Below the pieces are notes generated by a model. The model searched no databases. It was not told the origin of the DNA and was given only the letters and a program-made list of their open reading frames with translations. This document shows, one piece after another, positions 3,634 through 60,180 of a stretch of DNA of 61,198 bases; positions within the stretch are counted from its first letter, which is position 1, and each line of letters opens with the position of its first letter. Source of the DNA: Catajapyx aquilonaris (Eukaryota); the NCBI GenBank assembly GCA_000934665.2, contig KZ538653.1, forward strand, positions 1 through 61,198, written 5' to 3'. Position numbers and translations under genes: made by a program.

Positions 3634-16894
<13,261 letters not shown>

Positions 16895-17000
16895 AGGGGG
16901 CAGGAGTCAGGGGTACAAATACAGAAAAATATATATATTATGTAGTAGGATATGGCTCTTTCGCACCTGCGTCCGTGTTTGGTGCACTTTCCCCCCCCAG

Positions 17001-39510: not shown

Positions 39511-42500
39511 CACAATCTTGCTTAACTTACTTCAACAGGATATATGAAGTTATAAAGAATGAAAACCGTCAGACACTCATCTGTAATGGTGTATTAATTC
39601 TGAACTCTTTTGGTCGCAACTTTAGTTTTACCACACTATATAACTTGTATTAGTCAAAGCAAGATTCACACTGATGCAACCGACAATATACAGTTAAAAC
39701 AGTCAGTGGCATCTGATCTCCTAGCCGCCGAATTGTGTTAATCAAAGTCAGATCGGTTATAAAATGAATGAGTTGCACGACTGCATGCCATGGTTCCCGT
39801 AATGTAACTTTTTTTTATTTGTAAGAAATCCAGTCTTATACCGGTTTGCATCGTGGAGATAATATGCATCTTAATGAAGCTGAGTCAGAAAGAATGGTTG
39901 CTCAATCTTAGAAGCGGGATATCTGTTCTGTGCTTTAATGGATTTTTAATTTTTTATGTTAAAATGATCACAGAAGGCCCTGAAAATTATTCAAATGTTT
40001 TATTTCAATTGTTCTGGCAATAACAGGTGAGGTCATTAATTGATTGTTGCCAATAGTTTGTTAAAAGTGACAGCTAATTTTTAAAAACGGATCACTGCAT
40101 AACACCAGTTGCATCACGTGGAAATCCTTGAAATGATGACCCAATTTATAAAAATGCATCGCCCGTGGTAATTTAATTAAATAGTTAAGTCAACATTATG
40201 TGTTGCTTATAATCATTAACATCATCTGTCGCTGCCAAATATATTCAAAAAATGGCGAAAGGTTTTTAGCACCTTCTTGACTAAATCAAGCTCAAATTTT
40301 TGCAATTGAGTGAACGCATATCGTACCGTACGGTATATTTGAAAACTTTTCACTCCTGCAAAGATTTATTTGGAGACGCAGCCAAATGAATCCTTTACAG
40401 ACAATAACCATCATATTCGGATGCGTATGAGGAAGAGGGTAAGGACCATAAGACATTATATGAAGAACTGAAGTATATTTGGGAACCTTTTTTTTTTTGC
40501 ATTTTCTGTTTTCTGACTCGCTCTTTGCTTTCAACGGCTGTTGTCAATAATACGTCGTACTATACCTTATGAACCTTTCTGGACGTGGACAATAAAGTCT
40601 GCCCAAGTCTTCAGAAACATTTTTCGAACTTCTTCCCTATATCTTGAAACAAAGTCCATCGGCAATGTTTTCAAGTCCACGACATCAGTCATATCATAAA
40701 CAACGGAATCACAAATAATACATGAAAGCTCTCTAACTATTATTAAAGTGAACCTTAAGAAATGCCATAAATTTTCTATTTAAGATTATGTTGATTTAAA
40801 ATAAAGAATAAATGTCTCTCAAGCACTGATTTACCAGTACAAGCATTATGGGTTCGAATTTCTGCTTGTAGTTCACCATAACTGATGATGACTTCAAAAT
40901 AGAATGCAGACACGTTCACAGTAAGTAAAGTGGTTTTAATGTGATTGAAGTGCTTGCATATACGTCTTTGTTGGTCTTGTACTATAGTTGGCATTGTTGT
41001 TGTACAGGTGGTGGTTGTGATAATATATGTCAGTACCTCATCGATGCTGCGACTTTGCAGAAATACCGCCCGTTTATATATACTGTTCGTGACAAAATTC
41101 ATTGATCGCTTCCTCTATACGCGAGTGTCACATCGCGCTTGATTTTAAAGTGTTTTTCTACAGTGATATTTCATTACAGTCTCTTGTCCCAAATAATCAA
41201 CCTATTACCATAACCTTTACTAACGTCTCTACGTCTCTTTTGTCAGAGTCACGCCCTGGGTTTGGATTACACTATTAGTTGGACAGGCAATTATTGGATT
41301 CAAAATGTTGTCTATGCGAAATAATAGCCTATTATTTGACATAATATGCCACTGAGAAATTTTATATACTAATCTCTAATATATTGTGGGATAAATGCCT
41401 AATATAGCCCCCATTTCAATTGAATATTCCGCTACGCTGAGAACTGTCAATGGTACGGTATATCTATTTATGTAGGCAACAGATAATTTGTTCAATTTAT
41501 TTATCGTTATACTGATATTATACAGATAACCACTGTTTTCCTTCCTTGATGAATAACATCAGGTAAATAACATTTGTCACATCCTTGTAACATACACAAG
41601 CCAGATTTTCTCCCTCCAAAAAACCACTCGAGACCCATAACCTGCGGCGTCCTCGTGGCATATTCGGTTAAGAATACTTTTGGTCGGCTGGTCTCTTTTC
41701 CTGATATTCCCTAAAGAGCGGATAAGTCAAACGCAGAGAGTTCACATCTGGGGCTGGGGCGTGTTTGAAATGAGTCAGCTCTATTTGTATGTTCGGGTTT
41801 TTCCTGCAGCCCGGAAGGGCCGCTCTTTCTCTCCAGGGACTAGTTATTTTTTAATGCCGGTTAAATATCACGTAGCCTGTCGGCGGCCAATAATGAAATC
41901 GATAAGTGCTCGGAATGACTCGCTACCATCATCGCAATATGTGTATATAACACTGTTAGAGACTTGCCCTCCATCTCTGCCCATTTTGCCAAGCTTTAAA
42001 AAAATATTCTCATATTTCCCTTGTTGTTGTGGTGTTTCTTGGAAGACTATAACAACCTCATGATATCCTGCCATTAACGGGCGTTAATGGCAGCTGAAGG
42101 TAATATCACATTGCGCGTAAAATCAGCTTTTGTGCGTCACAACGTGATGGCGACATTCAGGGTCTAGGGCAGGTAATGGACGGTTTAATATTTCAGGGTC
42201 GATTTTTACCTGCCGGATTTTCTTTGTTCATTTTGATATTCAAATTGCCAGTTATTCACTAAATATATGAATTTGCAATAATTGATTAGTGCCAAACCAA
42301 GCACTGTACAGAAATGTTCATAGTTATGAAACGGGCTTCCTAATTAAGTGCAAGATGACCATAAAGAGTTAAGGCAGGGCAGTTGGTGTGGGCGGCCCCT
42401 GGGCGGTGTGCCCCCAGCTTGTGTGTCCTGGGCCGCCTCCATTCATAAGAGCTTCCTTTTCTGCAATGAATGGAAAGTTGTGGGGGCAACAGGATGAGGC

Positions 42501-43810
42501 CAAAATGGCCGGGGAGGTAGGGTCGCTCTGTTGGCTGGGCTGGCTGGCTGGCTGGCTGGCTGGATGGATGGTTGGTTATATACAGTAGATGGCCTCGCTG
42601 GCATCGATCAGCATCCAGAGCCCGCACAAACCATCCTCGCACACGGCCTTCCAAAAACCTTCCCCCACCCCCAGCAACCTGGGCTCATTCATGGAGAGAG
42701 CCCAGGCTGCAGAGTAGTTTGCAACATCAATTTCTGCTTTGCCTTATACGACCAGAGAAGATGCATCATCTTCCGAATGGTCTACTTTTTCCGGTTACGT
42801 AGAAAATAGCTAGTTTTTTTTTCCTTTTGGAATGGGGGGTGGTACTGATGGTTTTGGGTCGAGTGAGTGGACTAAAAATGGTTGGGGCTGAAAACAGCGA
42901 CGGTGTATGGCATACAGGAAGTTTTATTTTACAGAAATAGAACCTTCCATTGGGAACCGGCAAAGCTTGAATTTTGCTCTTGCTGAAGCTGCTGGAGGAA
43001 GTTGCGGCTGTGCCTGTAACAAGCAAGCCGTTAACCAGTATAGGCCTGTCACATCCCTACTCCTCCTCCTACCCCCTTCTCTCTTCAGCCGTCCCTGGGA
43101 GAGAGAGAGAAAAAATCCTGCAACGTGAACTCTGCAAACTCAGAATGCATTTTATCTGCAACCTTTCATCCTTTTTGAAATGGCACTAAAGGCGGAACCC
43201 TTTTACCCAAGCTTTTTCGCAGAACTCTTCGTCCAAATCCTTGATCTACCATGAAAAAAAAGATATTGAGGATGGGGATAAATGTCTTAAATTGCAAGTT
43301 AGCAACTTATATTAACATAGGGCATGTCTGTATGCATATACTATATGTTATCACTGCACGAGTGGTTTTTTTGTATGTGTTTTGCGAAGTTAAATGTAAA
43401 TGCGTAGTAGTATCCTTTTGCAAATACTGTGTGCCATTGTCAGTCTTTTTGACTAACTTCGACGTTAGTTTCCTGTGCAATCAGTTGGGATATATAAATC
43501 CACACAAGTTAGTGAGATTGTGGATAGTAATGGTAGCAGACAATGCAACTGATAGGAAGGGAGTGCTGTTTGTTATTGACATAGGATTTAAGCAGGAAGT
43601 TAAATTGTGACGAGTAAATACTCTATAATAAATTTTCCTGCTTTTGATTCTCATGTAACATACTGTACTTATATCGGGACTTTTCTAGATTGCGTTAGTG
43701 TTTTGACGACAAAAATTCTGCACTACTGAGTGAACATAGCCTGATGATAATATAACAGCCAATTTATTGTAGCCTACACCAAGCTACCATAATTGTGAAA
43801 CATTTTGAGC

Positions 43811-43981
43811 CAGTGTTCGCATACTGGTAGTGTTCCTATACCAACGTTGAGCAATATTGTTCTCCAGCCACAGTTGGAGTTACGACCTTTTTGCACAATG
43901 CGCTTACATAATATTTGCGAAACCTTTCGGAAGCACTCCGGGAACCCTAGGGTTCCACTGAACACATGTTGAGAAACGCTG
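43811..43981. mobile_element. Degenerate hAT-like MITE
   Basis: Right end GGAACCCTAGGGTTCCACTGAACACATGTTGAGAAACGCTG (16-bp palindrome plus CAGCGTTTCTCAAC TIR); weaker left end CAGTGTTCGCATAC; no TSD found. Confidence 0.5.
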
Positions 43982-44760
43982 ATCAATATAGCAGACCTAT
44001 CACTCTATCACAAATAAGATATCGCACCATCCTTTATCCTTTTTACATTGTAATCACAAACGATATGCACACCACTCCTGACAACAGATTATAGATATTG
44101 CCACGATTCTATACAATGTGCGTAACATCTATACGGTACCGTTTTATTTGCATTCGCCATTGTCAACTCTCAGTTCGCAAGTTTCACAAGGGACGCTTTT
44201 GTAAAAGGTCGAGGTCAGTCGGCCAGTCACCATTGTTTCTTCCTGACACCACTGAACGGTTCCATAACTATAAGTCGAGGAAATCGAAGAGTTTCTGCTG
44301 GGAACGCCCCGAAATGGCCAACGCGTGATGGGAATTAAAGTGGTGTCCCCATGAAGCATGAATGGGATGTTATCATCTCCAATTATAACGGCAGGTCTTA
44401 TCAAACTTCCTTATCTCCTAGCTTGAAACTCATTCAGAGAAAGGTGAACACTCCCCCCCCCCAAAAAATCATGAATGGCACAACAAATTATTCGCGCATC
44501 CAATTCCACCATCTAAAACTCTAAACAAGGGGGTGTTCCGTCTAGCCGATGTGACGACCATAATTTTTGAATGAAACACGGCCTTGCCTCCCTATACTCT
44601 GATTGAGCTCATAGTTTGAATCTAGCATCCCCCAGATGGCTCTGTACTCTGTGAATCAAAAAGGGAAAAAAAGGGGGAGGGGGGGAGGGAGTGACCAGGA
44701 GGGAGAGTAGGGCGCATGTGGGAGGAACGGATGTGCACCCTATGGAGTCACAGCGCAAGC

Positions 44761-44766
44761 TCAGTT
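44761..44766 (+). promoter_or_regulatory. Candidate initiator (TCAGTT) for the proximal Spred promoter
   Basis: Arthropod Inr consensus TCAKTY about 335 bp upstream of the candidate Spred ATG, downstream of a G-rich tract. Confidence 0.35.
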
Positions 44767-45095
44767 CCTACCCCCCATCCAAGCTACAACCTATTTCCTA
44801 ACCTCCCCATACCAACCTCCCTCCCAACTCGGGAACACTAGGGGGACGTTCGACTCGTTGGACTGGAGCGGGGGCGGTTGTGTGTGTCTCGGGGCTCCGC
44901 TTATAGTCGCCCCATTTCTTCGCTGGGGCTCAACCAGCCAGCGGGGAAGATATGGGTCTGGTGTATCGTGGGTGAAGAAGGAGGGTTGTTTTGTTGGTGC
45001 CTGTATATTCGGCCGGCTTGGCAAGATGGTGTGCCCCCTGGTTGTCGTTCGGAGGAGGTATCGTAGCGCCCTGGCTGCTGCAGCTCAACACAAAC

Positions 45096-45115
45096 ATGAC
45101 TCCCGGGAATGAGGA
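45096..45115 (+). CDS. Spred: Spred probable first coding exon (MTPGNE-D)
   Basis: caaacATG insect start context and ga|gtgagt phase-2 donor matching the phase-2 acceptor at 56442. Gives MTPGNEDKNYLVRVRAQ, similar in length and acidity to Spred N-termini. Confidence 0.75.
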
Positions 45116-46042
45116 GTGAGTATACAAGCGGAGGGAAGAGAGGGAGTAAAAAGAACAGGGGAAGAAATAGAGGGGGAGAAGTTTTTTCTGGATGGGGGAT
45201 AGGGGGAGGGGGGTCGTTGGCCTATTTTTTTGGCACTTTTTTGGGAGGATTGGTACTTAAGTTCATTCAGAAGGGACAGGTGATTGCATGTGTGTACTGT
45301 GCAGTATTGTTGTGTTGGTGTGGTACATGTTGCGGCATGCAGGGATTGTCTGCGTGATGTGTGTGGTTGGTGCAGACAGGGTATAGGTGACATTGTCTGC
45401 GCTGGAGGAAATTCTATGCAGATTCCTATCGGTGCACCTGAGTCTGACTAACATGAGCTATTTGTAATGCGGATAGGCTGATGTCGGGATGCCGACTTGT
45501 CTCTTCGACTGCGGCGGAAGATGTGTGCGTAGTTAACAGACAAAGAAACTGCGTCATGAGACGCATTAAATTTATTGGGGCCGATCATTTGATTTTCTAT
45601 GAGACTAATCGGCACTGTAAATGTAGTCGCTGACGTCTGTTTGAACCAAAATTGATGTATACAGGCCATTTCTAATTGTGCTCCTTGAATAAGAATTCAG
45701 ATGTTGCAATATCCTGTCGCAGCATATGGAAGTGAGAGTCTTGAACCCATTTTTTATCAGCTTTGTGTGGGTTGGCTGTTGCTTCCCTAATGCAGGCCCT
45801 ATTCTTCATACAAAATAAGAATGTTACAATGACATGGTAATGTTAGGAATGCAGAAATGATGATGAAATAGTGCAGCCTTAAAATGCTGCTTAGGAAAAT
45901 GTGGTGCAAGTTCAGATTTTGTGGCTATCTTCAAAACGTTCCTTCGAATGTCACATATTAGTGTAGCAGTTGCTTAACAATATCTGCAAGTAAATGCCCA
46001 GAATTCATTAATCAAACATGCTTGTGATTAATGAATTTTATT

Positions 46043-46375
46043 GGAGAGGCAGAGTGGCGCTGCGGCAACATATGCGCCCACGGATGTAATGGTCCCGGGT
46101 TCGATCCCAAGCCCGGGCTTTCCCCCCTTCATCTCGTGCAGAGTGGATCGTCTCTGGCTTCGTCTCGGGTGGAATCTCCACTAGACTAATCCACCTGGGG
46201 CAGTTCATAAAATGTACCGTTACACACATTGCACTTGCACATCCCCTCCCAAGTCACCCTGCCCGTGGACCTGGGCGTTTCTCTGTAAGGTTCCAAAAAT
46301 GTACACTATGTACACCAGGCCTAATGAAATAAAGGGCCGTGCAATACCTCCTCTGAGGGAGGTCCGATTTAACAA

Positions 46376-46432
<57 letters not shown>

Positions 46433-46442
46433 TATTATTATT
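46043..46442 (+). mobile_element. Full-length tRNA-derived SINE with (AAT)n tail and 16-bp TSD
   Basis: B-box GGTTCGATCC (46098); (AAT)n/(ATT)n tail at about 46376-46442; TSD ATTAATGAATTTTATT (46027-46042) versus ATTAATGCATTTTATT (46443-46458). Confidence 0.85.
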
Positions 46443-49378
46443 ATTAATGCATTTTATTTAACATGGGTGATGCATTTCGAGAGAAAGCTGACAGAATTGC
46501 TGACTTGCGTATTAATTTATGAGTACCACCATAATGTACGGTAATTTTGACAATTCCTCAGAACATTCTTCACAGTGTAAGGAACTCTTGCTGTTATGAA
46601 GAATTCATACGGGTGACAAAAATGTATCATCGTAGATGGTTTAGTTAGGATAGGAAGCATGTTTGTAACTACGACAATAATGGAGTCGCATGGCATAATT
46701 TTGGGACAAACGCAAACTTTCCACCAGTTGTTGAATTGTTGTTGCTTGATAAGCCACAAAGCTAGTTGTTGTGGATGTAACATTTGCATTCATGAGGCCT
46801 TTATATGGTTGGACTACAAGTCAATTTAGTTGAGCAAAAAGCAGGACCTAATTTATTTAACGGATGATGATGAGATTATGCAAGTGTTATGCTTGTACAA
46901 GGGAAGCTCTTAGTGCTACCGAGTAATTCGATCTCGTGCTAACTAGCCTTGTCAGCATTTTGTTGCAAGTGTTTCTATTGAGAGGCTGGTTGTAACAGTG
47001 GATCATCTCCCATTTATAACTTGCGGTATTAGCCGGCAACCGGGACTCGACAAGCCTGTGTGCACTGTTGGCGTAACTGTAGTAGTTTTACTAATAGAAA
47101 CAGCCACAAAGAAATATTTTGGTAACCACTGATGGCATCAAAAACAACCGCTGCGAGTTGCTATTGAAGTGTGCTGTGTAACATTGGGTTTTTAAATGTT
47201 TTGTTTTTCGCTGGTACATGATCTAAGCATAAAAATCTCCCCTGCGTAACTTCCACAAAATGATTCAAATTCTGACAGTCACACCCTCCCACCAGAATTT
47301 TATATGCATATTTATAATTATAATTACAGTAAAGAACATGTGCAGTTTGGAGTACAGATTTGGTTAGCAATGTGTGTTTGCATAGCTAATGCAGCATGTA
47401 TCCATTGTGAAAAACTAATATTCACGTAGAATACGTTGCAGGTGAAAGTGTTACGGGGGGGGGAATGAGTTATTAATGCTCTTCATTTTAAAATACTACA
47501 CATTTTGCAAATGTACAGTAGTAAGGCATTCATTTTTAAAAATAGGTTAAAACCATGCCACCTTTTCAGTTGACTGTCATGGTACTAAAATAATGGTCCA
47601 GTATGGAACCATTTTGTGTCTTAACTTGGAATTAATTAGTAGCACAAGTCATTACTTAACTCTACACATTAAAATTGATAGATATTGAGAGAATATGGCT
47701 CATCATTTTAATGTTATTATTTTATTAGTGGCAGTTCGTTAAACACCTACGCATTCAATACTAATATCACACAATTTCTTTACGCCCCGCGCTATAAAAT
47801 GTGACTTGTCACTACAGTCTGCCGCAGTCCGCCATCGATAGACACGTCAGCGCGATAAGATCAAAAGCTTCTCATTCATTCACCCCCTCAACCATTGATT
47901 AAACCATCATAACACACTTAAAAAAAAAAATCCGAGCGAATCAAGTTGCAATCATAATCTATCGTCGCATTTTTCCGTATTGGCTAGCTATACGCTGGCT
48001 GTGCCATTGTTACATCGGGTGCCGGGTGCGAATGTAAAAAAGGACTGGGAGATCAATGGAGTGTGCATGGTGTGAAACGGGGGATGGGGCACTGGATAGA
48101 GGGTGGATGTCGCATAATGATGGCAGCGGATTTGCCAGCTTCCCGGAGTTTCGGGATCCGGCCAAGTCCTCAATGAACTGCGAAACTCAAGCCTGAATGA
48201 GAGCCGCCAAGATGATGAATGGGGGACAAAAGCTGGTCGGAATTGGCCTGGCAACTTGTGCATCATGTAGGGAGGTATTGCGGGGGTGGTGGGGGGTTGA
48301 AAACAGGGTGTATCTGAAAATATGTATGTACGGGGGTGGTATGTACCCGGGGGGGGGGGGGGNGGGGAGATCCGGGCGGGAGTTGGCGGCCGATCGAAGC
48401 TAGTCCGGGCGGGCAACTCCGGGCCGGGCTTCGGTGCGCGGAATGCGGTTCTTGGAGCGTGGGAAGTGGTAATTGGTAGAGAGAAAAATGTGATGGGGAG
48501 GAAATATCTTTGACTATTCATTCATCCCATTCATGGTCCGCGTCCATCTGGTGCGGGTGGTTCGGCACTAGCTGGCTGCACCACCAGAAAAGCGGTATGA
48601 ATTATGGATGCGGATGTTCCAGACCTTGTGCCACCTTGCGCGCCCTTCACCACATTGGATGCTATCGGTACTGAATTAAGAGCAATTCATTATCTGATAA
48701 GTAGGAGGATCAAAAGCGGCGGTATTTTTGGGTTGGTGTTGCTAGCTGCGAGACCGGGGAAAATAAATAATGCAATGGTGGGCCCAGGTGCTGAGGGCCA
48801 GCAGGGTGGACATGGATTGCGCAGTAGTTGTCACTGGATGGGTCAGTGTGCGTTTGCGTGTGCGTGAATTCCCAGGTGCTGGTTTTGGTAATTTATTCGT
48901 ATGATAAGGTGTGTAATTTGGCGGAAGAAAGGCCTGCAAATTGCGGGTGTATTTTAGGAACTTGTAATAGCGGTGTCACCTTGATTTGAATTAGTTTTGG
49001 ATGCATTTTTGAAAGTTATTACATCAGTCAAAAAAAAAAATGGGAGCATAGGCGTCATATATTTAGGAGGCGTAATTTTATGCAACAGTGCCTCGGTGAA
49101 ATATGCATGTTAAATGTTTACCCACTTCAAACTTCTGGAAAATCCCACAGAACACAGTAATTTTATAATTTGTATGTGTACCATGGGAGAAAAATTATCG
49201 GGCTTGTAGTTATGCTTATAGGGATGCGGCGAGTGTGCAGGGGGAGATGCTTAGAATAAACCTTTGTATGGACTAGGACATAGGTGCGGGTTGCACAACA
49301 ATTCCTTGACATTTGATGTTCCCAAGGTTATTGCATATGCTTCCAAGCTCATATTGTAGTCACCTCTTTGCCTAAGAG

Positions 49379-49560
49379 TGTTGTGAAATGCGAAGCGAAA
49401 TGGGAAGGTCTTGTGACTTAGATTACCATACTTAAATCGCTCCAGAAACATCGGTGATCGAATAATGAAGTTGAGCAATTCGTATGCAATGAAGTCCCTA
49501 TGCTACATGTTGGAACTGTTCTCTGGTGGAAAGCACTGATTGTAAGAGATGAAATTAGTT
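49379..49560 (+). repeat. Dispersed direct repeat, copy 1 (about 180 bp)
   Basis: CGAAGCGAAATGGGAAGGTCTTGTGACTTA...CAATGAAGTCCCT...GTAAGAGATGAAAT is shared with 51895-52088. Confidence 0.9.
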
Positions 49561-50818: not shown

Positions 50819-50906
50819 GGGCCGGTTGTATGAATATGAGTCAAGATTAACTACGTAGTTAGTCTATATGTAAGCAACAGCTAACTCAGGGTCATATAAC
50901 CAGCCC
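50819..50906. mobile_element. PIF/Harbinger (Tourist-like) MITE, 88 bp
   Basis: 15-bp TIRs GGGCCGGTTGTATGA and (reverse complement) GGGCTGGTTATATGA; TTA on both flanks. Confidence 0.7.
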
Positions 50907-51894
50907 TTAGAGAACAACGTGCAACACTCAAGATCGGGCGCCATTTACTAATGCTAGAAGAAAACCAAATTATCTAAGGTTACTGGCGTGGTCTGCGGCG
51001 ATTTCAAATAGGAAATATTGTAAAATTGCGAATGTCATGCGGATATCCGCAAAACCAGAATAGGGTAGGATAAACTGAGCTTTTCCTTCTTCCATTATTA
51101 GCAACAACTTCCAGTAAAAATTGTGGAGGTCCAGGAAAAAATGATCTTGGATTCTTTTGCATTGTTGTTGCATTTTCAATAGGGAAAGGAGTCCGGACAT
51201 TTCCACCTGACAACAACAATGAACAAGGATGAGAAATGGCCAGAATTAGCATATTTTCAGGTGGGTTTTTTTCACCATCAGTTGCTGGAAGCTAGGGCGA
51301 GATTTCATTTCTGCACTACTTATTTTCTGTTAGGTGCGCAGTTGCATGCCTGCCCGTTTCGTGATGGGCTACAATTTACATACAGTTCCGAGACCATCGA
51401 CGTAAGTAGAGAAAGATTTTCTCATAAACGCTACGTTGAAAGAGGGTGCGGGTTTATAGATAATCGACATTTTGAACAGGAATTGTATTGACAAATATCA
51501 GGCAGCTGACTATTTACGGAGGTCTCGTGTCAGTGCCCAACAATCGAGTTTTGTTGCAGTGCTCCCGACTATTTGTAGTTGAGGTCTGTAGGTGAAGTGA
51601 CTCGAGCAACGTAATGAAACGTACTACTAGTATAGCTAAGAACTGGCTTCCGATCTTTGCTCAATATACAGACGGGTTTTCCGGCAGGTGGTGTGGTGCA
51701 CTTGTGTATTGTTAAATTTGCAGTTATGCCAAGTTAGCAGTTACATGAGATATGATTGTGTGTACACACCCATCCAGGCTACCATTATGAGAAGTAACAT
51801 TTTTCTAATAATTTAACATCTTTATCACGACGCTTCGGTGTGACGTAAATAATCACAATCTTCAGCCAAGAGTCTAGTCAGATCTTTACCTAAA

Positions 51895-52088
51895 TGTTGC
51901 GAAATCCGAAGCGAAATGGGAAGGTCTTGTGACTTAAATTACCATACTTAAATCGCTCCCGAAACATCGATGGCCGAATAATAAAGTTTAGCAATTCGTA
52001 TATGCAATGAAGTCCCTGCTACATGTTGGGTGGGACTGGTTCTCTGGTGAAAAGCAATGATTTTCCGGGTAAGAGATGAAATCAGTTG
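51895..52088 (+). repeat. Dispersed direct repeat, copy 2
   Basis: Diverged copy of 49379-49560 with small indels. Confidence 0.9.
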
Positions 52089-53919
52089 GGTATTTACTTC
52101 ACGAAAGGGCGGAAAAGCCAAGCAGTGTATCCGACCCAAAATACATTTTGTGGCCATATTGACGTTGACCAAATGGGTGTTTGGGCAATTCTGCATTACT
52201 GCCTATTTCATGGCTACTAGATTCAGTTCTTCCCATGACGTCAATGCCCATGTAAGCGCATGCAAAAATGTGTGTGTGTGTGTGTTTTTTTTTGTACGTG
52301 CCACTGAAATATTCTCAGTGAGATATAATACTTGAAAATAATTTAATTAAGCGTAGCCTGTCTTTGACATTGACTTTTACTTTTACCGTAAACTTAGGAG
52401 GGAATCAAGGCGGGACTTCCAGCGAAGTTTACTATGAATTTCTATTTTCTTACCCTTTCGGTGAAACAACGAATGTTGTAAACATAGGCCTATACGTAAG
52501 CTAAGGAGTAACTTGACATATCAGTAAAGGTAACCGGGTTTCTTGGAAGTCGTATATACTATAGAATCCCTCCTTGTGCGTTGTTGTTGCAGCCCAGGAT
52601 ATAGGATTTCATCCCAATCTCCCGGAACAACTTGTTACTGCTAAGTGAACAGAGTTCCGGGAATTGTTGGTTCTGACAAACAAGCTCCCATCAAAATTAG
52701 AAGAGACCTTTGTTCGTCAGTAATTGCGTCCTGTGCTTATTATGTCCTAACAAGGGTTTGATCGGGCGTGAGTTTTCCGATATATGTCGCCAGGATGAAC
52801 AGATAAACGCAATATCTTCCCACTCCTGGGGTGTTTGCTATATAGCACCTGGGAAGACCGGAAGTTTCTTGCTGAAAATATAGAAAAGACATCAGAAGAA
52901 GAGCCCTGCAAATGTTTTGAGCGTGAATAAGAATAGAATCTTTTGATGAATGAAGGCTTCCTTGCAGATAATGAGTTAAGTAGCGCCATATAAGTTCAAG
53001 GGCGCGTTTGTTAAGAGGCGGGCGATAGCAAGCAGCAAAATGTGATATTGTTTTCTGGAAGAGTACAAGGCATCGAAATGGGGGGGATATGCCGTGCATT
53101 GGTTGGGGGTGTCGCTGGGAACTATACTGGCACGTACAAATCAATACTAGGAAAGTGGTGCTTGCTGCTAGGGGGGTCCGTGCACATGCCCATGTTTTTC
53201 GGAGGGTTTTCGTATCTGGCGACGTGTGTGATGCAAGACTTTTTGCGTGATATTTTGGCTGAGTGGCCCAAATGAAGCGTCTCGTGGCGTCAAGCGATGT
53301 TGGAGGGGGGAGGACTAATCGAATTTCTCGGAAAGTATAGGAAGCAACAAGTACGGGATGTCGCAGGGAATGAGACTGCCTGGGCCCATTGATTGCGTCA
53401 GCTAGTTATAATTTTGGCCAAATTTTTACAAGCGTTTCTCCAGAAGACTGACCGTTGAAAGTTTGTCTTGACCGTGAAATGGGTCTCGAGAAGCAAAGCA
53501 GGTGGAAGAAAAGCGACAGTTGGTCCCGATTTCCGCCCTAGAAAATACGGTAGTTGTGAATGAGAGCCGGAGAATGAATCGGCCGCATAATTATCCGGCG
53601 TGCATTTTTGTAGTGTGCGTATGTGGGACGGAAGCTAGCCCACAATGGCAGCCAAGGTAGCCGGAACTTGCTTCCTTTTTTCCCACCATCTGCTCCCCCC
53701 CCCCCCCCCNCCCCTCCGGATGATTCTTCCTCTGGTGTGGAAACGGAAGGAGTGCTGAACACACCCATTGGGCCAAGCGGCCCAATGCCCCCCTTTTTTG
53801 GGGCCACAACTCTATCAAATTAGCTCCAATCGTCAAATTGTGAAGGGAGGGAATGCAGGATGTTTAGTTTTATACGAGAGGAAGCCAACTTCCGGGTTCG
53901 TATATATACGTTCAACAAA

Positions 53920-53961
<42 letters not shown>
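53920..53961. repeat. (TA)n microsatellite running into an assembly gap
   Basis: Directly visible. Confidence 0.95.
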
Positions 53962-54117
53962 NNNNNNNNNNNNNNNNNNNNNNNNNNNNNNNNNNNNNNN
54001 NNNNNNNNNNNNNNNNNNNNNNNNNNNNNNNNNNNNNNNNNNNNNNNNNNNNNNNNNNNNNNNNNNNNNNNNNNNNNNNNNNNNNNNNNNNNNNNNNNNN
54101 NNNNNNNNNNNNNNNNN
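53962..54117. other. Assembly gap (further gaps at 58243-58258 and 59367-59545)
   Basis: Runs of N. Confidence 1.
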
Positions 54118-56441
54118 GGGGGGGGAGAGAGAGAGGAAAGGGGACGGGCAATTCCATTATGGTGATTGGGTTGGTGGATTTTGTGCACCTGCAGTAAGAG
54201 AGAGTTATTGGCCGGAAATGGAACATTTTTGCGGAGCAGAGTGTCGGAGGCTTTTTCCGCATATTGGAAGAGACTTCTACTGACAGGATTTGGTGGTAGC
54301 CCCTAATTTGGTTGAGAGATGCGATGCCCCTCTTTTTTTTCGCTCTGTTGCTGGGAGCTAGCGCGACACGGACTGTCGAAACAATGTTTTAACACGGTTT
54401 TAACCACCACTTTCCTCTCCTTGTGAGAGTTAGGAAAAGGAAACGAGATAAATAGTCGGGGGATGACGTTGCAGACCTTGAGGCCTTCCCTTCAAACTCC
54501 CCCACCTCCTGCCTTTATTTATTTTTTCTTCTTCCACGCACTCCTAGACGCAAGAATATGTTGTTGTTGTTGTTCCAAAGTGACTCTTTTGCAACATACT
54601 ACTTAGTGGTTTAGGGGGTGGGGGGGGGTGGGGAATTCATTCATTCATTCATGAGGGTTTCATTCAAGCGTGTCCCTTTTGTTTGCCACCAACGTGGCGG
54701 AGACAACAGGAAGTGCGACTGAATGAGCCGCCTGAATAATGGACCAAGGAATAGAATGTAAGTTATGCGCATGTATGTGGAAGAGCAACAGAAGCTCCAA
54801 CCTCCCGTGGACAAATCGATTTCACAATTGCAGGGTAATTGAGCCAGGATGCTTTATGGCCCGGGTTGGGAGTCCATCAAGTGTTGCGGAGGGGGGGGGG
54901 GGAGTTGGGTTGGTGTACGAGGTCCATTCAGCAGAATGGTGCCGGGCTTACCTGGCTTGTGCGATGATTCTTGCATGTCATTTGCGGGTAGGAATGGTTT
55001 GGCGGGGGAAGGTCAGGGATTTTGACCCGAGGAGCCTGGCAGCGGTGCTTGAATGAGTAATGGTTCGGGTGACAAGAGTGGTAGCAATAAAACCCAATTT
55101 GTAAACGATATCGCATGGCGATAGGCCACCTCGTAACATGGTCGGATTTGGAAAAGCGCGGGTATCATTTGATATAGTCCGGTTGGTACAATGACCTTGA
55201 TATTACGACATGATTATTGTGTGATGGAATCCAGTCGATGGTGTGTCGAGTTGCTGGCTAATTTTCAGCCGGATAAGTAGGTCAGGAGTGCCATTTACGA
55301 TGTGGTTTCACAATCGTTGTGGGCATTGTTTAGCGGTTCTTAGCGACATAATTGGAAGCAATGGGCGACAAAGAGGCCGACTTGTGAAATGGGTGAGTGA
55401 GTGAGGGAGGCAGCCAGGCCGCCGGATAAGGGGGGTGCTTGGGAGGCCTCCGGAAGCGGAAGTAGGCTGCAGCAGCCCGAGTTGGGTTGGAAAGAGTGGC
55501 TGGAGAGTGTGCGGGCCATGTGTGCTGGCAGTGGAGTGATGGTGTGGCTGTAGGAGGGCCATGGTGGGCTCCCGGGAATGGCCTAGGTAGGGCTGGCTTC
55601 TGTGTGTGTTTCCAGGAAGAGTGAGTCAATTGTTGGCAGAGGGTAATTGCTTGAATCTGGAGTGATCATCCCAAGGCAAGGGCGGGGAGGGCAAACAAGA
55701 AAACTTTTTTGGGGGGGAGTGCAGAATCCTAAATAAGTTTCCAAAGTAAACGTGGCCTTGTTCAAAGGGGGGGAGAGAGGATTTTTTCAGGGCGGATTTG
55801 GTGGACTGACTGGCGGAAACGTGTGGTGTTTGAATAGTGAGGGGGCATGTAGTTTTTGAGAGGCAAGAGGGCTGATTTCCGCGCACCTTTATTTCCCCAC
55901 AGAATGAGTGAGTTGGCGTGGTGGTGGCGGAAACCCAGGCTCCAGTAATCCTTTCATGCCCCTCCACTCATGGGAATGGCCTTTCAACATGGGCTTGCAT
56001 ACGAGAATGGCTAACTTAGAATTTCGAAGGTACATGTAGATGTGTGCACCTATCAGATGGTCTTGTTTGTGTTGCTATTCTCCTGACCTGTAGTTTGGAG
56101 TGCCGTCGCCAGCAGGTCTGCCTGGTGACGGCAGTCTCAAAGCCAGGAGTGTAGGTGTTTTTTCCGTTGTTGACATTGTTTGTAGTGGACGGGGGGCTTC
56201 TCTGACGCTGCAAACCAATCAGGACTTGCACCGAAGACTGTCAAGTCAAGTGCCGAGTGTGGCCATGGTAATGAGAAGTCCTACTTGGAATTACAGGACG
56301 GTCAGAGAGCAATGTGCATCGGTTCAGGTGTCATGTGGATGTAGCATTGACAGAATGTTGTGCGTGTGGGTGTGAATGGATGTGAATAGCAGGTGGAAGT
56401 GAAGGACCATTGACTGACAGTTGTCGTTCTTCTTTTTTCAG

Positions 56442-56625
56442 CAAGAACTACCTGGTTCGTGTGCGGGCTCAGGTGATGATGCGGGATGACAGCACGGGGG
56501 GCTGGGTCCCCATGGGGGGAGGGGGCCTCTCCGACGTGTCTGTCCGAAAGCGCAACATCTCATCTGACCCTGACGAAGCCAGGCACGAATACCTGATATA
56601 CGGAAAGCGTATATCTGACCAGACG
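56442..56625 (+). CDS. Spred: Spred EVH1 domain exon (KNYLVRVRAQVMMRDDSTGGWVPMGGGGLS...YGKRISDQT)
   Basis: Spred-type VRVRAQVMxRDDSxGGW signature; ttttttcag acceptor, acg|gtgagt donor. Confidence 0.95.
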
Positions 56626-59600
56626 GTGAGTCTGCTTCTCTTATTCGTCTTGCTCTGCTGCGGGCAGTCGGTTGGCGCCAGGGGGGAGGGGAGGGGGATT
56701 TTTTGGGCAGTCGGCTTTGTGAAGGGATGTTTTCAAAGAAAAGAGGCAGCTTGCGTGTCGTATTTCAGTGAACTTCAAAGTTGTGCACTTCATGCAACCT
56801 GGGTAACTGGGGTGGGGCTTCCCAGAGAATTAATCAAAGCGAAGAATTGAGAGATTCATGATTCTGGGAAGTCGAAGGTCGAGAAAATCCACGTTGCAAT
56901 ATTCAAATGTCAAATCACATCTCCCACGCTTTAATCTGAAAACGGTGCCCTCTTGGTGATTTTTAACTTACGAAAAGTTCCGATGCCAGGCTTTTCCTGT
57001 GTTCACAGTTCCAATGCTAATATGGTGATGATTTTAGAAGTATGAAATGGTACTGTATATCCAGAGTCAATCATTTGCACGGGATGGGCACAGCAACTGT
57101 TTAACCCTTAATAATGTATTGGTTGTCACAGCAGGCCAATTCAGTTTTTTTCCGGTCTGTTATGTGTACCAGCCTTGTAGTGATGTAAGTCACTTTATCA
57201 AATTACATCACCAGTATATGTATACAGCAGGGCCAATTCCAGGTCACATTGTTACAAAATCGGGAGCTGGAAATTGCAGACCGACCACGTTTTGCAACAA
57301 TGTTTCCCGAAGGATATTATCATTCCTCCGGCCGGAGAAACCGGCCACGTGCAACGGCGTGAGATGTTTTCTTGTCGGTATTAATCATGACAGGGAAAAC
57401 ACGAAATTCGATTCAGAGTCTCGGTTGTCAACCACGCGCCGTCACTTTGGCCCCCACCGTTAGGAAATTTTCTGCCATTCGATGCCAAACCAGAGATCCG
57501 AGGGATGCAAACTCCAAGAGAGGAAGATCCAGTGATGACTCTCGATATCGGAGGGAAGTGAGGCCCCTGGGAATGCCACTTGACAGGAAAGGCGGCATCA
57601 ATATTTTTCCTACCCATATGGAGATCTCTCCCCCTCTCTCACAAACTTGTGAACGAGAACCCGTATTCCCTCGACTCCGGTGACAACTAGCCCAAGAGCG
57701 CACTCCGGAGAACGTGGGCTTCTTTTCGGGCGTTGGATGCGACAGCACCGCAGGGATTTCCCGCCCGATAGAAAAGGTTGGGGTTACGTGAATACCCCTA
57801 GCGCATCATAGGGGTATGGGGGGGGGGGGGTTAGGTAAAGGGCTTAGAGTTAGTGTGCCAGGGTGCTTTCCTCGTGGGGTGACTCAAGCCGTCGGCGAGC
57901 CACACATACACCGTCGCACATGCAGCGAGTGCATCTGGCAAGCACACACGGGGGGTTGAGGGGGGGGGGGGAGAGAAACGGGTGTAAGTAGGCCTAAAAA
58001 TAATGGGTGCGTAATGAACTTGTCAAGTGTGCGTTGAACCCTTCACGAGGTGCTGCTGAGCCAGACGAAAAATCAGCGACCGACTCCAGGGGATGACCCT
58101 TGGCCTTATTGCAGGGAAGATATTGGCGAGATAGAGGATCAACTGGATGCTTTTAGTGCTTAATAAGCGTCAGTGATTCCTTGCCAATCGAAGGCAAGGA
58201 CAGGCGGGTGACTTTTTTTTTTTGTCTGGGGCGCTGGGGAGGNNNNNNNNNNNNNNNNGGGGGGGGGGGGGTAATGTCAAGTGTAATTTGCGGAGTGGGA
58301 AAAATCGGAGGCTGCAAACAGGAGTAGGAAATCAGGGGACTGTTGAAATGACATTAGGGCTGGTTGGCAGTGGGCGGTAGTGACATAACATCTGGGTCAG
58401 AAAGTGATGCTATTACGATATTCCGGGGGATATAATACGATTGCCGTTCGCCAAGGTACGGCAGGAAACGGGGCCGGGTAACAGAATTATCAGTTTTCCA
58501 TGCTGGAAAGAGGAGGGAAATACTGGAGCTAATGCAGCAGGATAGGGGGTCGGTGTCAAGGTGACTTTGCCGATTCAGAGAGCGGCGTATTGAAAGCGGC
58601 ACAGTTCGTAATTAGGCATTGTTAGTGTGGAGTTCAAAAATAAGCAAATTGGTAATTGGAAGTGTACTGTAGGGTACGACCATGCAGAAATTGAATGGCA
58701 TATGCCCACGTATGTTTTCCAGTCTCCTGCGTCCGAATCGGCAGCCCCAAATGCAAATGACTCCAAATTTCGCACACTTGAACGGGTTACGACAATCCAG
58801 TCCTCAGCCAATGTCGGTGGTTTTGAATTGATGGTGCCGACAACATCCATGACGTAACCGCTTCTTTCATCGGGGGGGTCCTTTTTGTACCTGGTGACCC
58901 AGGGCGGCCATCACGGGCACAGGGTGTTTCATCTGCAATGGGCGTGGGCCATCCCGCACCTGAAAGGAGGGTCCCTGGCACAGGGCGTGGGTGACGGGGC
59001 GTGGTCTTGCAATTTTAGCCCCTACTCTAGTCCTTCTCGGGCTCGGGGCCGCCCCCAGGGCTGACGGGCGAGCCGGCTGGCCCTTGGGTCGCACCCGCCA
59101 ACACCCGAGCCGGGATATAGCGCAGGTGGGGGGGCCGGCAGTGGGCGGCCCCGGAGGTGGCCCCTGGACCCCGGAGTTGGAAGCGACGCCTCCGACGCTT
59201 TTTCTCCTCCCTCCTCCATTCAGGCCGCTCCCGGAGCAGGCTCCATTGACAGAATTTTCCCAGCGGCATGCGCACTCTCATGGCGGCGGAGCTTGTTTTG
59301 GGGACGGGGGTGGGAGGCTTGCAGACTATGGAAGCTCGAGCCATTAATTAAACCTGCGCACAGAGANNNNNNNNNNNNNNNNNNNNNNNNNNNNNNNNNN
59401 NNNNNNNNNNNNNNNNNNNNNNNNNNNNNNNNNNNNNNNNNNNNNNNNNNNNNNNNNNNNNNNNNNNNNNNNNNNNNNNNNNNNNNNNNNNNNNNNNNNN
59501 NNNNNNNNNNNNNNNNNNNNNNNNNNNNNNNNNNNNNNNNNNNNNGGGTTGATGAGGACTTTCTCCCTTGCACGGCCTCCAGAAAAAAAGGGGGGAGCCA

Positions 59601-60011
59601 GAAATTTAGCGGTCACGTGTTTGTCCATTCATTCCTGGTTGCTGGAAAGGATGGGGCCGATGCAGATGCGGGGCTGATATCTGGCAGGTGGGGATCGGGA
59701 GATGCGGAAAATGGCGTGGAAAGGAAAAGAGAGGGAGAGAGCGGGGGGACCCGGAGTTTGCATTGAATGAAGCCGTCCCAGTTCATTCACAGGTCGGGCA
59801 GATAAGGCCGCCTCGCCGATTTCCGAAGGCCACACGCCGCGCCCGCTTTTCCTACCTGCCAGCCGCGATGGCTGGAGGAGCTGTTGCTTGGCCCCCTTGG
59901 CAACTGGTCAGAGCCCCGGGGCAAAGAACCAAAATGGCCGCGGCTTTTGTTTCCAGGAATGTTGACCAAAAACGGGGTGTAAAAAAAAAATGGATGCGAC
60001 GATGCTTGCAG

Positions 60012-60180
60012 GTGGTGCTGAGCTGTACCATCAAGAAGGACTTCGAGTACAACAAGGTGATGCCGACATTCCACCACTGGAGGACTGGAGACAAGAAGTT
60101 CGGGTTGACCTTCCAGACGGCGGCCGATGCCCGAGCTTTCGACAAGGGGGTGGTGACGGCCGTGGAGGACCTTCTGGACG
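60012..60180 (+). CDS. Spred: Spred EVH1 domain exon ([23 protein letters not shown]...[18 protein letters not shown]...EDLLD)
   Basis: PTFHHW and FGLTFQxxADARAF Spred motifs; ttgcag acceptor, g|gtacgt donor; the gene continues beyond the window. Confidence 0.96.

Follow-up and report, generated by a model that had tools for sequence, protein, structure and literature searches.

The 5' part of the Spred gene contained in the window (the whole stretch of 61,198 nucleotides that was analyzed) carries an excess of the Capicua octamer TGAATGRA, which is strong, local, specific for this motif and clustered. Among the transcriptional sensors of ERK activity Capicua is the main one, and the SPRED proteins, which act as brakes on Ras, are found mutated in Legius syndrome. 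We rather favor the view that these sites form real Capicua-site clusters which make Spred ERK-inducible, and the sequence suggests that the feedback brake leading from Capicua to SPRED in mammals may also be present in arthropods. Below we establish which genes are present, how their exons are arranged, and that the motif is in excess, specific and clustered; the link between Capicua and Spred has been demonstrated in mammals, and the arthropod case was not found in print.

Spred and Alk genes in the window

The 3' exons of Alk occupy positions 14467–16894 (+ strand) according to the list of open reading frames, the last long coding frame of which spans 15908–16894. The kinase-domain exons of this gene (14467–14679, ~15028–15249 and 15352–15612, all on the + strand) were recognized from Pfam and solved relatives, with matches to PK_Tyr_Ser-Thr (E 3.9e-21 and 1e-21) and with the ALK kinase as best solved relative (E 7e-35).

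Exon 1 of Spred, as far as seen, extends from 44865 to 45115 (+ strand) and is comprised of 5' UTR up to the start codon at 45097, with a donor GT at 45116. It is delimited by a 523-nt spliced contig from run X5, in which position 45115 is joined to 56442 with GT..AG ends and 11326 nucleotides skipped, corresponding to an 11.3-kb intron 1; this joint is absent from the DNA run X1, and the two leftover bases of exon 1 agree with the phase of exon 2. A single spliced contig of this kind shows that Spred is transcribed and no more than that. Exon 2 (56442–56625, + strand), which is likewise placed by the spliced contig, encodes the first half of the EVH1 domain, its best solved relatives being the EVH1 domains of Spred1 and Spred2 (E 2e-12). 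The second half of this domain is encoded by exon 3 (60012–60180, + strand; Pfam WH1, E 4e-8; E 4e-23 against the Spred1 EVH1 domain), and the joint from 56624 to 60011 also has GT..AG ends. For exon 3, 120 relatives with 82–95% identity were listed, and those bearing an organism name were all from arthropods.

The identification of this gene as Spred and of its upstream neighbor as Alk, proposed in an earlier sequence-only reading of the window, is borne out by these Pfam and solved-relative matches. The same reading described a motif array across Spred. Since the window ends in intron 3 of Spred, the region concerned covers upstream DNA and the first two exons with their introns, and the description applies to the 5' part of the gene but not to the gene as a whole.

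Excess and specificity of the octamer

In the whole window TGAATGRA is present 30 times, versus 8.33 ± 2.87 in 100 dinucleotide shuffles (maximum 16; none of the 100 reached 30), and the excess thus holds against a dinucleotide-matched background. Seventeen of these 30 matches lie in the region 42438–59789, where 2.1–2.6 are expected from Markov models of orders 1–3, as had been roughly estimated before (about 2); order-3 simulations of this region gave 2.43 ± 1.53 matches (maximum 8), with 0 of 300 reaching 17. The number of separate sites is 15 when an array described below is counted once and 16 when matches less than 8 nt apart are merged, consistent with the at least 14 separate exact sites reported earlier, and each coordinate named in that report bears the motif assigned to it. 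Its figure of about seven sites in the first 42 kb was in error, 13 being present there versus 6.2–6.9 expected.

The density of the octamer is 1.00 per kb in the region versus 0.31 in the rest of the window (binomial p = 0.0012, or 0.0048 with the array collapsed), a value which is slightly flattered as the boundaries of the region were placed on motif matches by the sequence-only reading. In the Spred part (42001–61198) there are 16–17 TGAATGRA matches versus 2.28 expected (P 3e-9) and 26–28 matches to TGAATGRR versus 4.46 (P 3e-12); no excess of TGAATGRA is seen in the Alk gene part (1–16900; 4 vs 2.41, P 0.22). The intergenic stretch (16901–42000) displays a mild excess (9 vs 4.15), and hence the rest of the window is not a clean control. 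The octamers are above background and grouped in clusters, and their excess is local to the Spred part and not a habit of the genome, as measured against shuffles, Markov models and comparisons within the window, a background which is not genome-wide.

Among the 639 families of the form NNNNNNRN with at least four matches in the region, TGAATGRA ranks sixth, and the families above it are G-runs, (AT)n and (AAT)n only, making it the leading 8-mer family once simple repeats are set aside. The form TGAATGAA is found 11 times in the window, where 1.21 are expected. Of its 24 single-base variants, only TGAATGGA (6 vs 1.07) and TGAATGAG (7 vs 0.85), both tolerated by Capicua, are clearly raised, the other 22 being present 0–3 times with 0.5–1.3 expected. 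This spectrum agrees with the specificity of Capicua, which tolerates variation at positions 2, 7 and 8 only; the position-2 variant TCAATGAA is itself not raised (1 vs 1.02). The general form T(G/C)AATG(A/G)A is represented in 42438–59789 by 17 TGAATGRA and three TCAATGRA. The latter are indeed present at 48053, 48170 and 59242, as had been noted, but without enrichment (three where 1.71 are expected, a number attained in 73 of 300 simulations), and they add nothing to the case.

Functional sites of this type might also be read by a factor other than Capicua with similar preference, e.g., one favoring the 9-mer ATGAATGAA, and we regard this as very unlikely. An A is found at position −1 in 45 of 76 sites, and ATGAATGAA, which extends beyond the published octamer, accounts for 11 of 18 nine-nt runs. 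However, POU-like words of the TGAATAAA type are depleted (0.7x), and we know of no factor besides Capicua for the TGAATGRA octamer. The only substitution that is clearly tolerated, a G at position 7 or 8, also agrees with the published consensus T(G/C)AATG(G/A)(G/A) (PMC5485162), and mouse sites are flanked by a short A/T-rich extension (PMC5344332).

The proposal that Spred is a direct target of both Capicua and Pointed is supported in its Capicua half by the excess and clustering of the octamer, but its Pointed half is not supported, as ETS cores occur at chance frequency. The four ETS cores that had been pointed out do exist, but ETS motifs as a whole show no enrichment: CCGGAAGT is found twice versus 0.77 expected (reached by 51 of 300 simulations), CCGGAARY four times versus 3.60 (141 of 300), and GGAA 212 times versus 212.9; CMGGAAGT (5 vs 1.59; 7 of 300) is marginal. 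An ETS/Pointed-responsive enhancer was considered and rejected, the ETS cores displaying neither excess nor tight coupling, with only the one at 54707 lying within a cluster.

Site clusters and the repeat question

Spred has approximately 26 TGAATGRR sites, of which 16–17 are strict TGAATGRA, in its 2.9 kb of upstream DNA, within the 11.3 kb of intron 1 and within intron 2. Most of them fall into five groups (C1–C5), four of which contain at least three sites in 300 bp. All four qualifying clusters fall in the Spred part (upstream, promoter, intron 1 and intron 2), versus a simulated mean of 0.04 per window (100 simulations, maximum 1), and the 26 sites are more clustered than when placed at random (P 0.005).

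Group C1 (42438–42691, both strands) consists of three TGAATGRR upstream of Spred, viz. an inverted pair of TGAATGGA at 42438(−) and 42467(+), 29 bp apart, and TGAATGAG at 42684(−); it is 2.2–2.4 kb 5' of the first transcribed base seen and adjoins a (TGGC)10.8 array at 42532–42575. The promoter-proximal C2 (44359–44575, both strands), 290–506 bp 5' of the start of the spliced contig, is comprised of TGAATGGG at 44359(+), TGAATGAG at 44429(−) and TGAATGAA at 44568(+), plus TGAATGGC at 44472. In the upstream 2.9 kb as a whole there are six TGAATGRR versus 0.60 expected (P 4e-5). A single TGAATGAA (45262–45269, − strand) is present 147 bp inside intron 1, and further within this intron C3 (47871–48533), in a G-rich stretch, contains six TGAATGRR (47871, 47875, 48194, 48216, 48517 and 48526), of which 48194/48216 and 48517/48526 form pairs less than 100 bp apart, and two TCAATGRA (48053 and 48170). 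Isolated sites on the + strand follow at 52947–53564 (TGAATGAA at 52947 and TGAATGAG at 53557), with the ETS-like core ACCGGAAGT nearby at 52857.

Group C4 (54636–55057), also in intron 1, has five merged sites within 300 bp. It includes a (TTCA)4.5 array, equivalent to (ATTC)4.5, at 54635–54652 with three overlapping octamers (54636–54651), followed by TGAATGAA at 54659(−), TGAATGAG at 54720(+), TGAATGGA at 54923(−) and TGAATGAG at 55050(+), and the ETS-like CAGGAAGT at 54707 lies between these sites. One TGAATGGA (56373–56380, + strand) is found 62 bp 5' of the exon 2 acceptor. Lastly, C5 in intron 2 (59215–59789, both strands), 220–800 bp 5' of exon 3, contains TGAATGGA at 59215(−) and 59624(−), TCAATGGA at 59242(−) and two inverted TGAATGAA spaced 18 bp apart, at 59764(+) and 59782(−); the group is interrupted by an assembly gap (59367–59545, 179 N). 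For intron 2, four sites were observed versus 0.32 expected (P 3e-4).

This arrangement bears on the promoter that such sites would serve. Real Capicua sites could act not upon the exon 1 promoter but upon Alk, 28 kb upstream of Spred, upon an unannotated transcript within intron 1 or upon an alternative promoter of Spred located in intron 2, an arrangement which we consider improbable. C3–C5 are in G+C-rich islands distant from exon 1, C5 lies close 5' of exon 3, several isoforms are found among the named relatives listed for exon 3, and the intergenic stretch toward Alk is mildly raised. However, C2 is promoter-proximal to the sole exon 1 with spliced-contig support, the Alk gene body is without excess, and the excess recurs at Spred loci without Alk in their flanks, no Alk-like sequence being present in 60 related loci (flanks of up to 10 kb). 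The earlier suggestion that a loop is closed with the adjacent Alk was based upon adjacency alone and is speculation.

A different reading of the excess follows from the composition of the motif. The form TGAATGAA is (TGAA)2, i.e., a dimer of TGAA. If the region tended to accumulate AATG-class proto-microsatellites, together with decayed copies of them, its match with the Capicua octamer would be a coincidence arising from this identity. We consider this unlikely, although tetranucleotide dimers are raised overall (median 1.84x, 90th percentile 5.1x), (TGAA)2 at 4.6x ranks just 19th of 126, its three cyclic permutations are also raised (3.4–5.2x), and a true (ATTC)4.5 array is present within C4. 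In contrast, the non-periodic TGAATGGA and TGAATGAG are enriched in the window as strongly as the dimer, TGAATGAA stands as a bare 8-nt run in five of its 11 occurrences versus four for the other three phases combined, the motif is found in just one of 19 tandem-repeat rows (42000–61198), and the inverted pairs at 42438/42467 and 59764/59782 are not explained by slippage.

An outright (AATG)n microsatellite, defined by at least three head-to-tail units, was rejected as the source of the sites, as only 54635–54652 (4.5 copies) qualifies and it accounts for three of the 17 strict sites; elsewhere in 42001–61198 the periodic runs are 8–11 nt long. The sites resemble such microsatellites in that TGAATGAA is made up of two units and one 4.5-unit array exists. 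They differ from them in that 14 of the 17 strict sites are outside the array, on both strands and in part as inverted pairs. Of AATG-class runs of at least 9 nt, five are present in the 19.2-kb Spred part and five in the first 42 kb, the corresponding numbers for the AAAT class being three and 15.

Known Capicua systems and Spred loci of other animals

The octamer is bound by Capicua as a monomer in both fly and human (PMC5344332). Human SPRED1 and SPRED2 are CIC targets, with ChIP-qPCR enrichment at SPRED1 and with 13 putative CIC sites in the SPRED2 promoter and three in SPRED1 (PMC5485162). CIC-DUX4 peaks contain tandem or repetitive TGAATGRR, and one is found at a SPRED1 regulatory element (bioRxiv 10.1101/2023.10.11.561932). 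The mammalian control of SPRED1/2 by CIC, as invoked in the sequence-only reading, is accordingly documented (PMC5485162; PMC5344332; bioRxiv 10.1101/2023.10.11.561932). That Spred belongs to the RTK/ERK-responsive targets combines its identity, tested here, with the ERK/CIC response reported in the mammalian papers. In Drosophila, Cic DamID recovered TGAATG(G/A)A in 692 of 2279 sites (PMC4684324). Spred is not named as a Capicua target in the fly literature searched, and Spred/CG10155 has no mention in five supplementary files of PMC4684324, the texts of which are possibly incomplete.

The closest known system is the repression by mammalian CIC of SPRED1/SPRED2/SPRED3, SPRY4, DUSP4/6 and ETV1/4/5. 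It shares with the present case the octamer, the target family, multiple promoter-proximal sites and the logic of an ERK-inactivated repressor acting upon a feedback inhibitor of the Ras pathway. Unlike it, the present case concerns an arthropod gene, whose sites form separate clusters distributed along 17 kb of upstream and intron sequence instead of one 2-kb promoter window, and outside the exons the arthropod locus aligns with no other Spred locus compared. The Drosophila Capicua elements (tll, hkb, ind, argos, pnt and Ets21C) also contain TGAATGAA-like octamers, often at least two each, which are read through the HMG-box and C1 domain with no helper sites (PMC5344332), but in the available sources they have 1–2 sites per probe, fewer than arthropod Spred, and Spred is not among the named targets. 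The repetitive TGNNTGNN bound by CIC-DUX4 in human sarcoma combines tandem TGAATGAA with TGAATGGA, TGAATGGG and TGAATGAG in promoters and introns, a mix that matches C3–C5 and the TGAATGAATGAA runs of related loci. CIC-DUX4, however, is an oncogenic fusion and an activator of transcription, and the relevance of such repeats to wild-type CIC is left open by the authors (bioRxiv 10.1101/2023.10.11.561932).

If arthropod Spred is controlled in the same manner, Capicua would, as long as ERK activity is low, bind the clustered sites in monomeric form by means of its HMG-box and C1 domain, and Spred would stay repressed. Activation of Ras-ERK by a receptor tyrosine kinase would lead to phosphorylation of Capicua and its departure from DNA, Spred transcription would follow, and the Spred protein would dampen Ras, the predicted outcome being a delayed negative feedback. 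Should the clusters be real, this module would be old and widespread, and they would provide easily testable enhancers for how site number and arrangement set the ERK threshold. If they reflect only a repeat habit, the case would be a warning that counts of this octamer, a TGAA dimer, require a repeat-aware background.

A similar excess returns at the Spred loci of other animals despite non-aligning non-coding DNA, mostly in the form of periodic runs. In a set of 15 non-redundant genomic Spred loci, totaling 140.9 kb and analyzed with exons 2 and 3 masked, TGAATGRA is present 59 times (52 when merged) versus 21.3 expected (P 1e-8); it is carried by 13 of the 15 loci and ranks 16th, outranked by simple repeats only. 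Alignment of these loci to the window, and of L007, L033 and L031 to one another, recovered exons only and no non-coding DNA. By our own Poisson arithmetic on the locus counts, five of the 15 loci (L007, L033, L031, L047 and L052) are individually significant at p < 0.02, and no excess is seen in L054 (1 vs 2.37), L032 (0 vs 1.10), L036 (1–2 vs 1.08) and L015 (4–5 vs 3.58). L052, an annelid-like locus whose best named match is Paralvinella (91%), has 12 sites versus 2.5 expected, five of them within ~230 bp (9871–10101), and three of these five are TGAATGGA.

The excess at these loci comes mostly from periodic runs of at least 9 nt. Their bare 8-nt runs display no phase preference (9, 7, 9 and 5), and TGAATGGA (10 vs 6.94) and TGAATGAG (8 vs 7.0) are near expectation; hence the replication rests on the periodic runs, for which microsatellite slippage could be an alternative source. 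In accordance with a neutral AATG habit, 25 of the 49 TGAATGAA of these loci are in runs of at least 10 nt by our breakdown of the run table. However, AATG is the first of 33 tetranucleotide classes in these loci (38 runs, 13 of 15 loci), and Spred loci are the only place where it exceeds the A-rich classes that usually dominate (38 vs 22–23 A-rich runs), the first 42 kb of the window having five versus 15 AAAT-class runs; among nine-nt runs, moreover, 15 of 18 are in a phase that includes the octamer (p 0.004).

Returning to Capicua as the reader of these sites, it is possible, and we put this forward tentatively, that the link from Capicua to Spred is ancestral bilaterian wiring, shared by annelid-like animals, arthropods and mammals and maintained through turnover of octamer clusters. 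Homotypic clusters would then turn over continuously without leaving alignable non-coding sequence, and the TGAATGAATGAA runs would be under selection as slippage-tunable, overlapping Capicua arrays that set the ERK threshold of Spred, and would not be neutral microsatellites. Such a regulatory link, if real, would have outlasted complete turnover of the surrounding sequence. Each of the three sites of L012 has an aligned counterpart in L013, but the two loci are 89% identical overall.

Exon structure of Spred and other features of the window

The 3′ part of an Alk/Ltk-type receptor kinase gene (14467–16894, + strand) was identified by Pfam (PK_Tyr_Ser-Thr at E values of 3.9e-21 and 1e-21) and by solved relatives, the best of which for its exons were ALK kinase structures (E 7e-35); the last long coding ORF of this gene in the ORF list ends at 16894. 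The 5′ part of Spred (44865–60180) lies on the same strand, with the two genes arranged tail-to-head and about 28 kb between them. Within Spred, exon 3 (60012–60180, + strand) matched Pfam WH1 and the Spred1 EVH1 domain (E 4e-23), exon 2 (56442–56625, + strand) matched the Spred1/2 EVH1 domain (E 2e-12), and exon 1 (+ strand) was located by a spliced contig, which covers it at 44865–45115. Relatives of exon 3 showed 82–95% identity among the 120 matches listed, and because those with an organism name all come from arthropods (insects, spiders and decapods, together with one scorpion, one centipede and one springtail), the gene is supported as being of arthropod origin.

The window is covered by four DNA runs from one sample, which may be the source of this DNA, and also by a run of a kind not on record (X5), which contributed one spliced contig and hardly any other cover. 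This 523-nt contig matches 44865–45115, skips 11326 nt (GT..AG), continues through 56442–56624, skips a further 3386 nt (GT..AG) and resumes at 60011–60099; neither of these splice joints was present in the DNA run X1. The contig is a spliced Spred transcript, and the true transcription start of the gene is at 44865 or upstream of it. The sole in-phase start codon in exon 1 is at 45097, and the two bases left over at the end of this exon (45115) complete the first codon of exon 2. The region dense in the strict Capicua octamer TGAATGRA (42438–59789) thereby starts 2.4 kb upstream of the exon 1 seen here, takes in exons 1 and 2 with the 11.3-kb intron 1 between them, and extends over most of intron 2, so that the array described as running across Spred in the sequence-only reading covers the 5′ part of the gene only.

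Several other features of this DNA may be mentioned. A high-copy interspersed repeat is present at 46040–46250, where the summed contig depth in X1 is about 30,000 versus about 30 in adjacent bins and where variant letters and loose ends are numerous; it is without a match in Rfam, as is the whole window, and it is adjoined by an (AAT)19 array (46376–46432). Single Ns occur at 20218, 23272, 34121, 48363, 53710 and 60752, those at 48363 and 53710 being inside G and C homopolymer arrays (48349–48367 and 53695–53714), and no word family of the window is more over-represented than GGGGGGRG (107 versus 14.4 expected). The G-run excess and the homopolymer Ns are possibly artefacts of sequencing or assembly. 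The GC skew is near zero over Alk and strongly positive on the + strand from 48000 to 60000, i.e., from intron 1 to intron 2 of Spred, with a peak of 0.29 in 54001–56000.

Excess, specificity and clustering of Capicua octamers

TGAATGRA was found 30 times in the window versus 8.33 ± 2.87 in 100 dinucleotide shuffles. The motif is present at every site that the sequence-only reading had named, and the excess that it described is confirmed. Seventeen of the 30 matches fall within 42438–59789, where the earlier estimate of about 2 expected sites agrees with Markov models of orders 1–3 (2.1–2.6), and a count of 17 was reached in none of 300 order-3 simulations of this region (2.43 ± 1.53, maximum 8). 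The first 42 kb of the window, for which about 7 sites had been noted, actually contains 13, versus 6.2–6.9 expected. The difference between the region and the remaining window was significant (binomial p = 0.0012), also after collapsing (p = 0.0048) an (ATTC)4.5 array at 54635–54652 that accounts for three overlapping matches and is the only motif-bearing tandem array among 19 rows. Backgrounds of orders 4–6 trained on the region (4.2–12.9 expected) were rejected as circular, since such models learn the motif from the region itself.

When the window was divided by gene structure, TGAATGRA and its looser form TGAATGRR (the latter in brackets) were found 3 versus 0.32 times expected (6 versus 0.60) in the upstream DNA at 42001–44864, 9–10 versus 1.54 (15–17 versus 2.84) in exon 1 and intron 1, and 4 versus 0.32 (4 versus 0.73) in exon 2 and intron 2. 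The corresponding counts for the Alk gene part (1–16900) were 4 versus 2.41, P 0.22 (5 versus 4.08). The intergenic DNA at 16901–42000 showed a mild excess of 9 versus 4.15, P 0.026 (14 versus 6.70), to which an inverted pair (32554/32600) and, directly beyond the 3′ end of Alk, a further three sites (17835–19231) contribute; these intergenic sites may belong to the same landscape as its distal portions, or be due to chance.

The excess is specific for this motif. Among 639 NNNNNNRN families with at least 4 matches in the region, TGAATGRA ranked 6th, below G-run, (AT)n and (AAT)n words only, versus 286th in 1–42437, and of the 34 TGAATG words in the region, 27 have purines at both of the next positions. 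In a substitution scan of 42001–61198, where TGAATGAA and its 24 single-base variants were counted, only TGAATGAA itself (11 versus 1.21 expected), TGAATGGA (6 versus 1.07) and TGAATGAG (7 versus 0.85) stood out, and the remaining 22 variants had 0–3 matches versus 0.5–1.3 expected. This pattern is that of the published CIC consensus T(G/C)AATG(G/A)(G/A) (PMC5485162), but it lacks an excess of variants with C at position 2. The TCAATGRA variants pointed out earlier are present in the region but are not enriched (3 versus 1.71 expected). The ETS cores reported with them likewise exist, but at chance frequency only (CCGGAAGT, 2 versus 0.77 expected; CCGGAARY, 4 versus 3.60; GGAA, 212 versus 212.9).

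Using a criterion of at least 3 TGAATGRR within 300 bp, four clusters were detected, all in the Spred part of the window (42438–42684, 44359–44568, 54636–54923 and 59624–59782), versus a mean of 0.04 and a maximum of 1 in 100 block-wise order-3 simulations; when the same 26 sites were placed at random, four or more clusters arose with P 0.005. A fifth, looser group is found at 47871–48533. The second cluster (44359–44575 in full) is positioned 290–506 bp upstream of the transcript 5′ end, and inverted octamer pairs occur at 42438/42467 and 59764/59782. Assembly gaps (53962–54117, 58243–58258 and 59367–59545) adjoin or interrupt the clusters at 54636–55057 and 59215–59789, and further sites may be hidden there for this reason. 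The first cluster (42438–42691) is immediately adjoined by a (TGGC)10.8 array (42532–42575), which explains the over-represented CAGCCARC family of the region (11 versus 1.56). In 45 of 76 sites from 42001–61198 and other Spred loci, the octamer is directly preceded by A, which may extend the Capicua site by one base; mouse sites are flanked by an A/T-rich extension (PMC5344332).

As TGAATGAA is (TGAA)2, the octamer excess might simply reflect a general habit of forming tetranucleotide repeats. Tetranucleotide dimers are indeed generally raised in the Spred part pooled with 15 Spred loci of other animals (median 1.84x, 90th percentile 5.1x), where (TGAA)2, at 4.6x, is 19th of 126 dimers and its cyclic permutations are likewise raised (3.4–5.2x). 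However, in the window the non-periodic variants are enriched equally to the dimer, bare 8-nt runs favour TGAATGAA (5 of its 11 occurrences are such runs, versus 4 for the other three phases combined; p 0.049), and only one run exceeds 11 nt. Therefore, a repeat habit does not explain the signal in the window, and on the sequence evidence we consider it fairly probable that the clusters at this Spred are functional Capicua sites.

Octamers at Spred loci of other animals

When metagenome contigs were searched with exon 3, 60 loci were identified, of which 30 formed 11 redundant clusters, with at most one locus kept from each. The 15 genomic loci retained (L007, L033, L015, L009, L024, L031, L036, L047, L052, L053, L054, L032, L045, L051 and L037) amount to 140.9 kb of sequence, in which exons 2 and 3 were masked. 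Short loci, loci in which exon 2 had no match of its own and cDNA-like loci with exon 2 directly against exon 3 (e.g., L001–L006, L008, L010) were left out, as were L057–L059 (65% G+C), which belong to the redundant clusters, matched over 17 residues only and are bacterial-looking. Six of the cDNA-like loci (L001, L002, L003, L005, L006 and L008) together contain one TGAATGRA. By protein similarity, L009 is ant-like, L024, L036 and L032 are springtail-like, and L052 is annelid-like (best named match Paralvinella, 91%, then Lingula and Capitella). Alignments of the window with these loci recovered exons only, the non-coding DNA being without alignable sequence, and L007, L033 and L031 also share only exons with one another, none of their sites being in an alignable block; footprinting by alignment is thus impossible.

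The 15 loci contain 59 TGAATGRA (52 merged) versus 21.3 expected (P 1e-8), with 13 of the 15 positive, and the family ranked 16th, below 15 simple-repeat families. By a hand Poisson calculation from these counts, five loci were individually significant at p < 0.02: L007 (8 versus 2.05 expected), L033 (5 versus 1.02), L031 (6–8 versus 0.74), L047 (4 versus 0.89) and L052 (11–12 versus 2.56). No excess was seen in L054 (1 versus 2.37), L032 (0 versus 1.10), L036 (1–2 versus 1.08) and L015 (4–5 versus 3.58). In L052, five TGAATGRA, three of them the non-periodic TGAATGGA, lie within about 230 bp (9871–10101) of the intron after exon 3.

Against this replication, bare 8-nt runs in the 15 loci had no phase preference (9, 7, 9, 5), and the non-periodic forms TGAATGGA (10 versus 6.94 expected) and TGAATGAG (8 versus 7.0) were close to expectation; hence, the excess sits in periodic runs of at least 9 nt. 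In its favour, besides the frequent A before the octamer, the octamer is contained in 15 of 18 nine-nt runs (p 0.004), the favoured form being ATGAATGAA (11 of 18), and AATG is the top of 33 tetranucleotide classes (38 runs, 13 of 15 loci), versus 22–23 runs for the AAAC, AAAG and AAAT classes; in the first 42 kb of the window AAAT runs number 15 versus 5 for AATG. Short of genome-wide backgrounds, such periodic runs are compatible with real sites and with slippage alike, the former because CIC-DUX4-bound regions in human cells are reported to contain TGAATGRR in tandem and repetitive form (bioRxiv 10.1101/2023.10.11.561932). At the level of sequence, what is added here is that Spred of several arthropod-like lineages and of an annelid-like one likewise carries an excess of the motif, mostly as periodic runs.

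Candidate Capicua control of Spred and the Alk neighbourhood

CIC, acting as a monomer in fly as well as human, recognizes TGAATGAA-like octamers via its HMG-box and C1 domain, and it represses RTK-responsive genes until it is down-regulated by RTK signalling (PMC5344332). In fly gut stem cells, phosphorylation of Cic by MAPK removes it from its sites and its targets are derepressed, and TGAATG(G/A)A lies within 692 of 2279 Cic DamID sites in the fly gut (PMC4684324). Loss of CIC raises human SPRED1 and SPRED2, and ChIP-qPCR enrichment was observed at a SPRED1 promoter site (PMC5485162). We infer that this arthropod Spred would be under the same Capicua logic as these human genes: at low ERK activity Spred would be kept off through the many octamers that surround its promoter and occupy two of its introns, and at high ERK its release would provide a delayed negative feedback on Ras. 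Spred works through neurofibromin, and Capicua repression is mediated by Groucho or HDAC complexes. Of the suggestion that Spred is a direct Cic/Pointed target, the Capicua part is likely in view of the octamer excess, its specificity and clustering, but the ETS part is unsupported, as the cores occur at chance frequency.

The Capicua–SPRED link is already known in mammals, and the arthropod case is apparently new to the literature: by title and abstract, no publication was found on Spred of an insect or other arthropod as a Capicua target, and preprint peak lists may bear on it. Spred and CG10155 have no occurrence in five supplementary files of the fly DamID study (PMC4684324), and a Drosophila preprint (10.1101/2025.11.11.687669) deals with Spred as a pathway suppressor only.

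The feedback loop that was proposed to be closed with the adjacent Alk is speculative, as adjacency alone does not point to Alk. None of the 60 related loci gave an Alk-like match, but their flanks of at most 10 kb make this result say little on synteny. In human, ALK and SPRED2 are both on 2p, and LTK and SPRED1 are both on 15q; these pairings would fit an old linkage of Alk and Spred.
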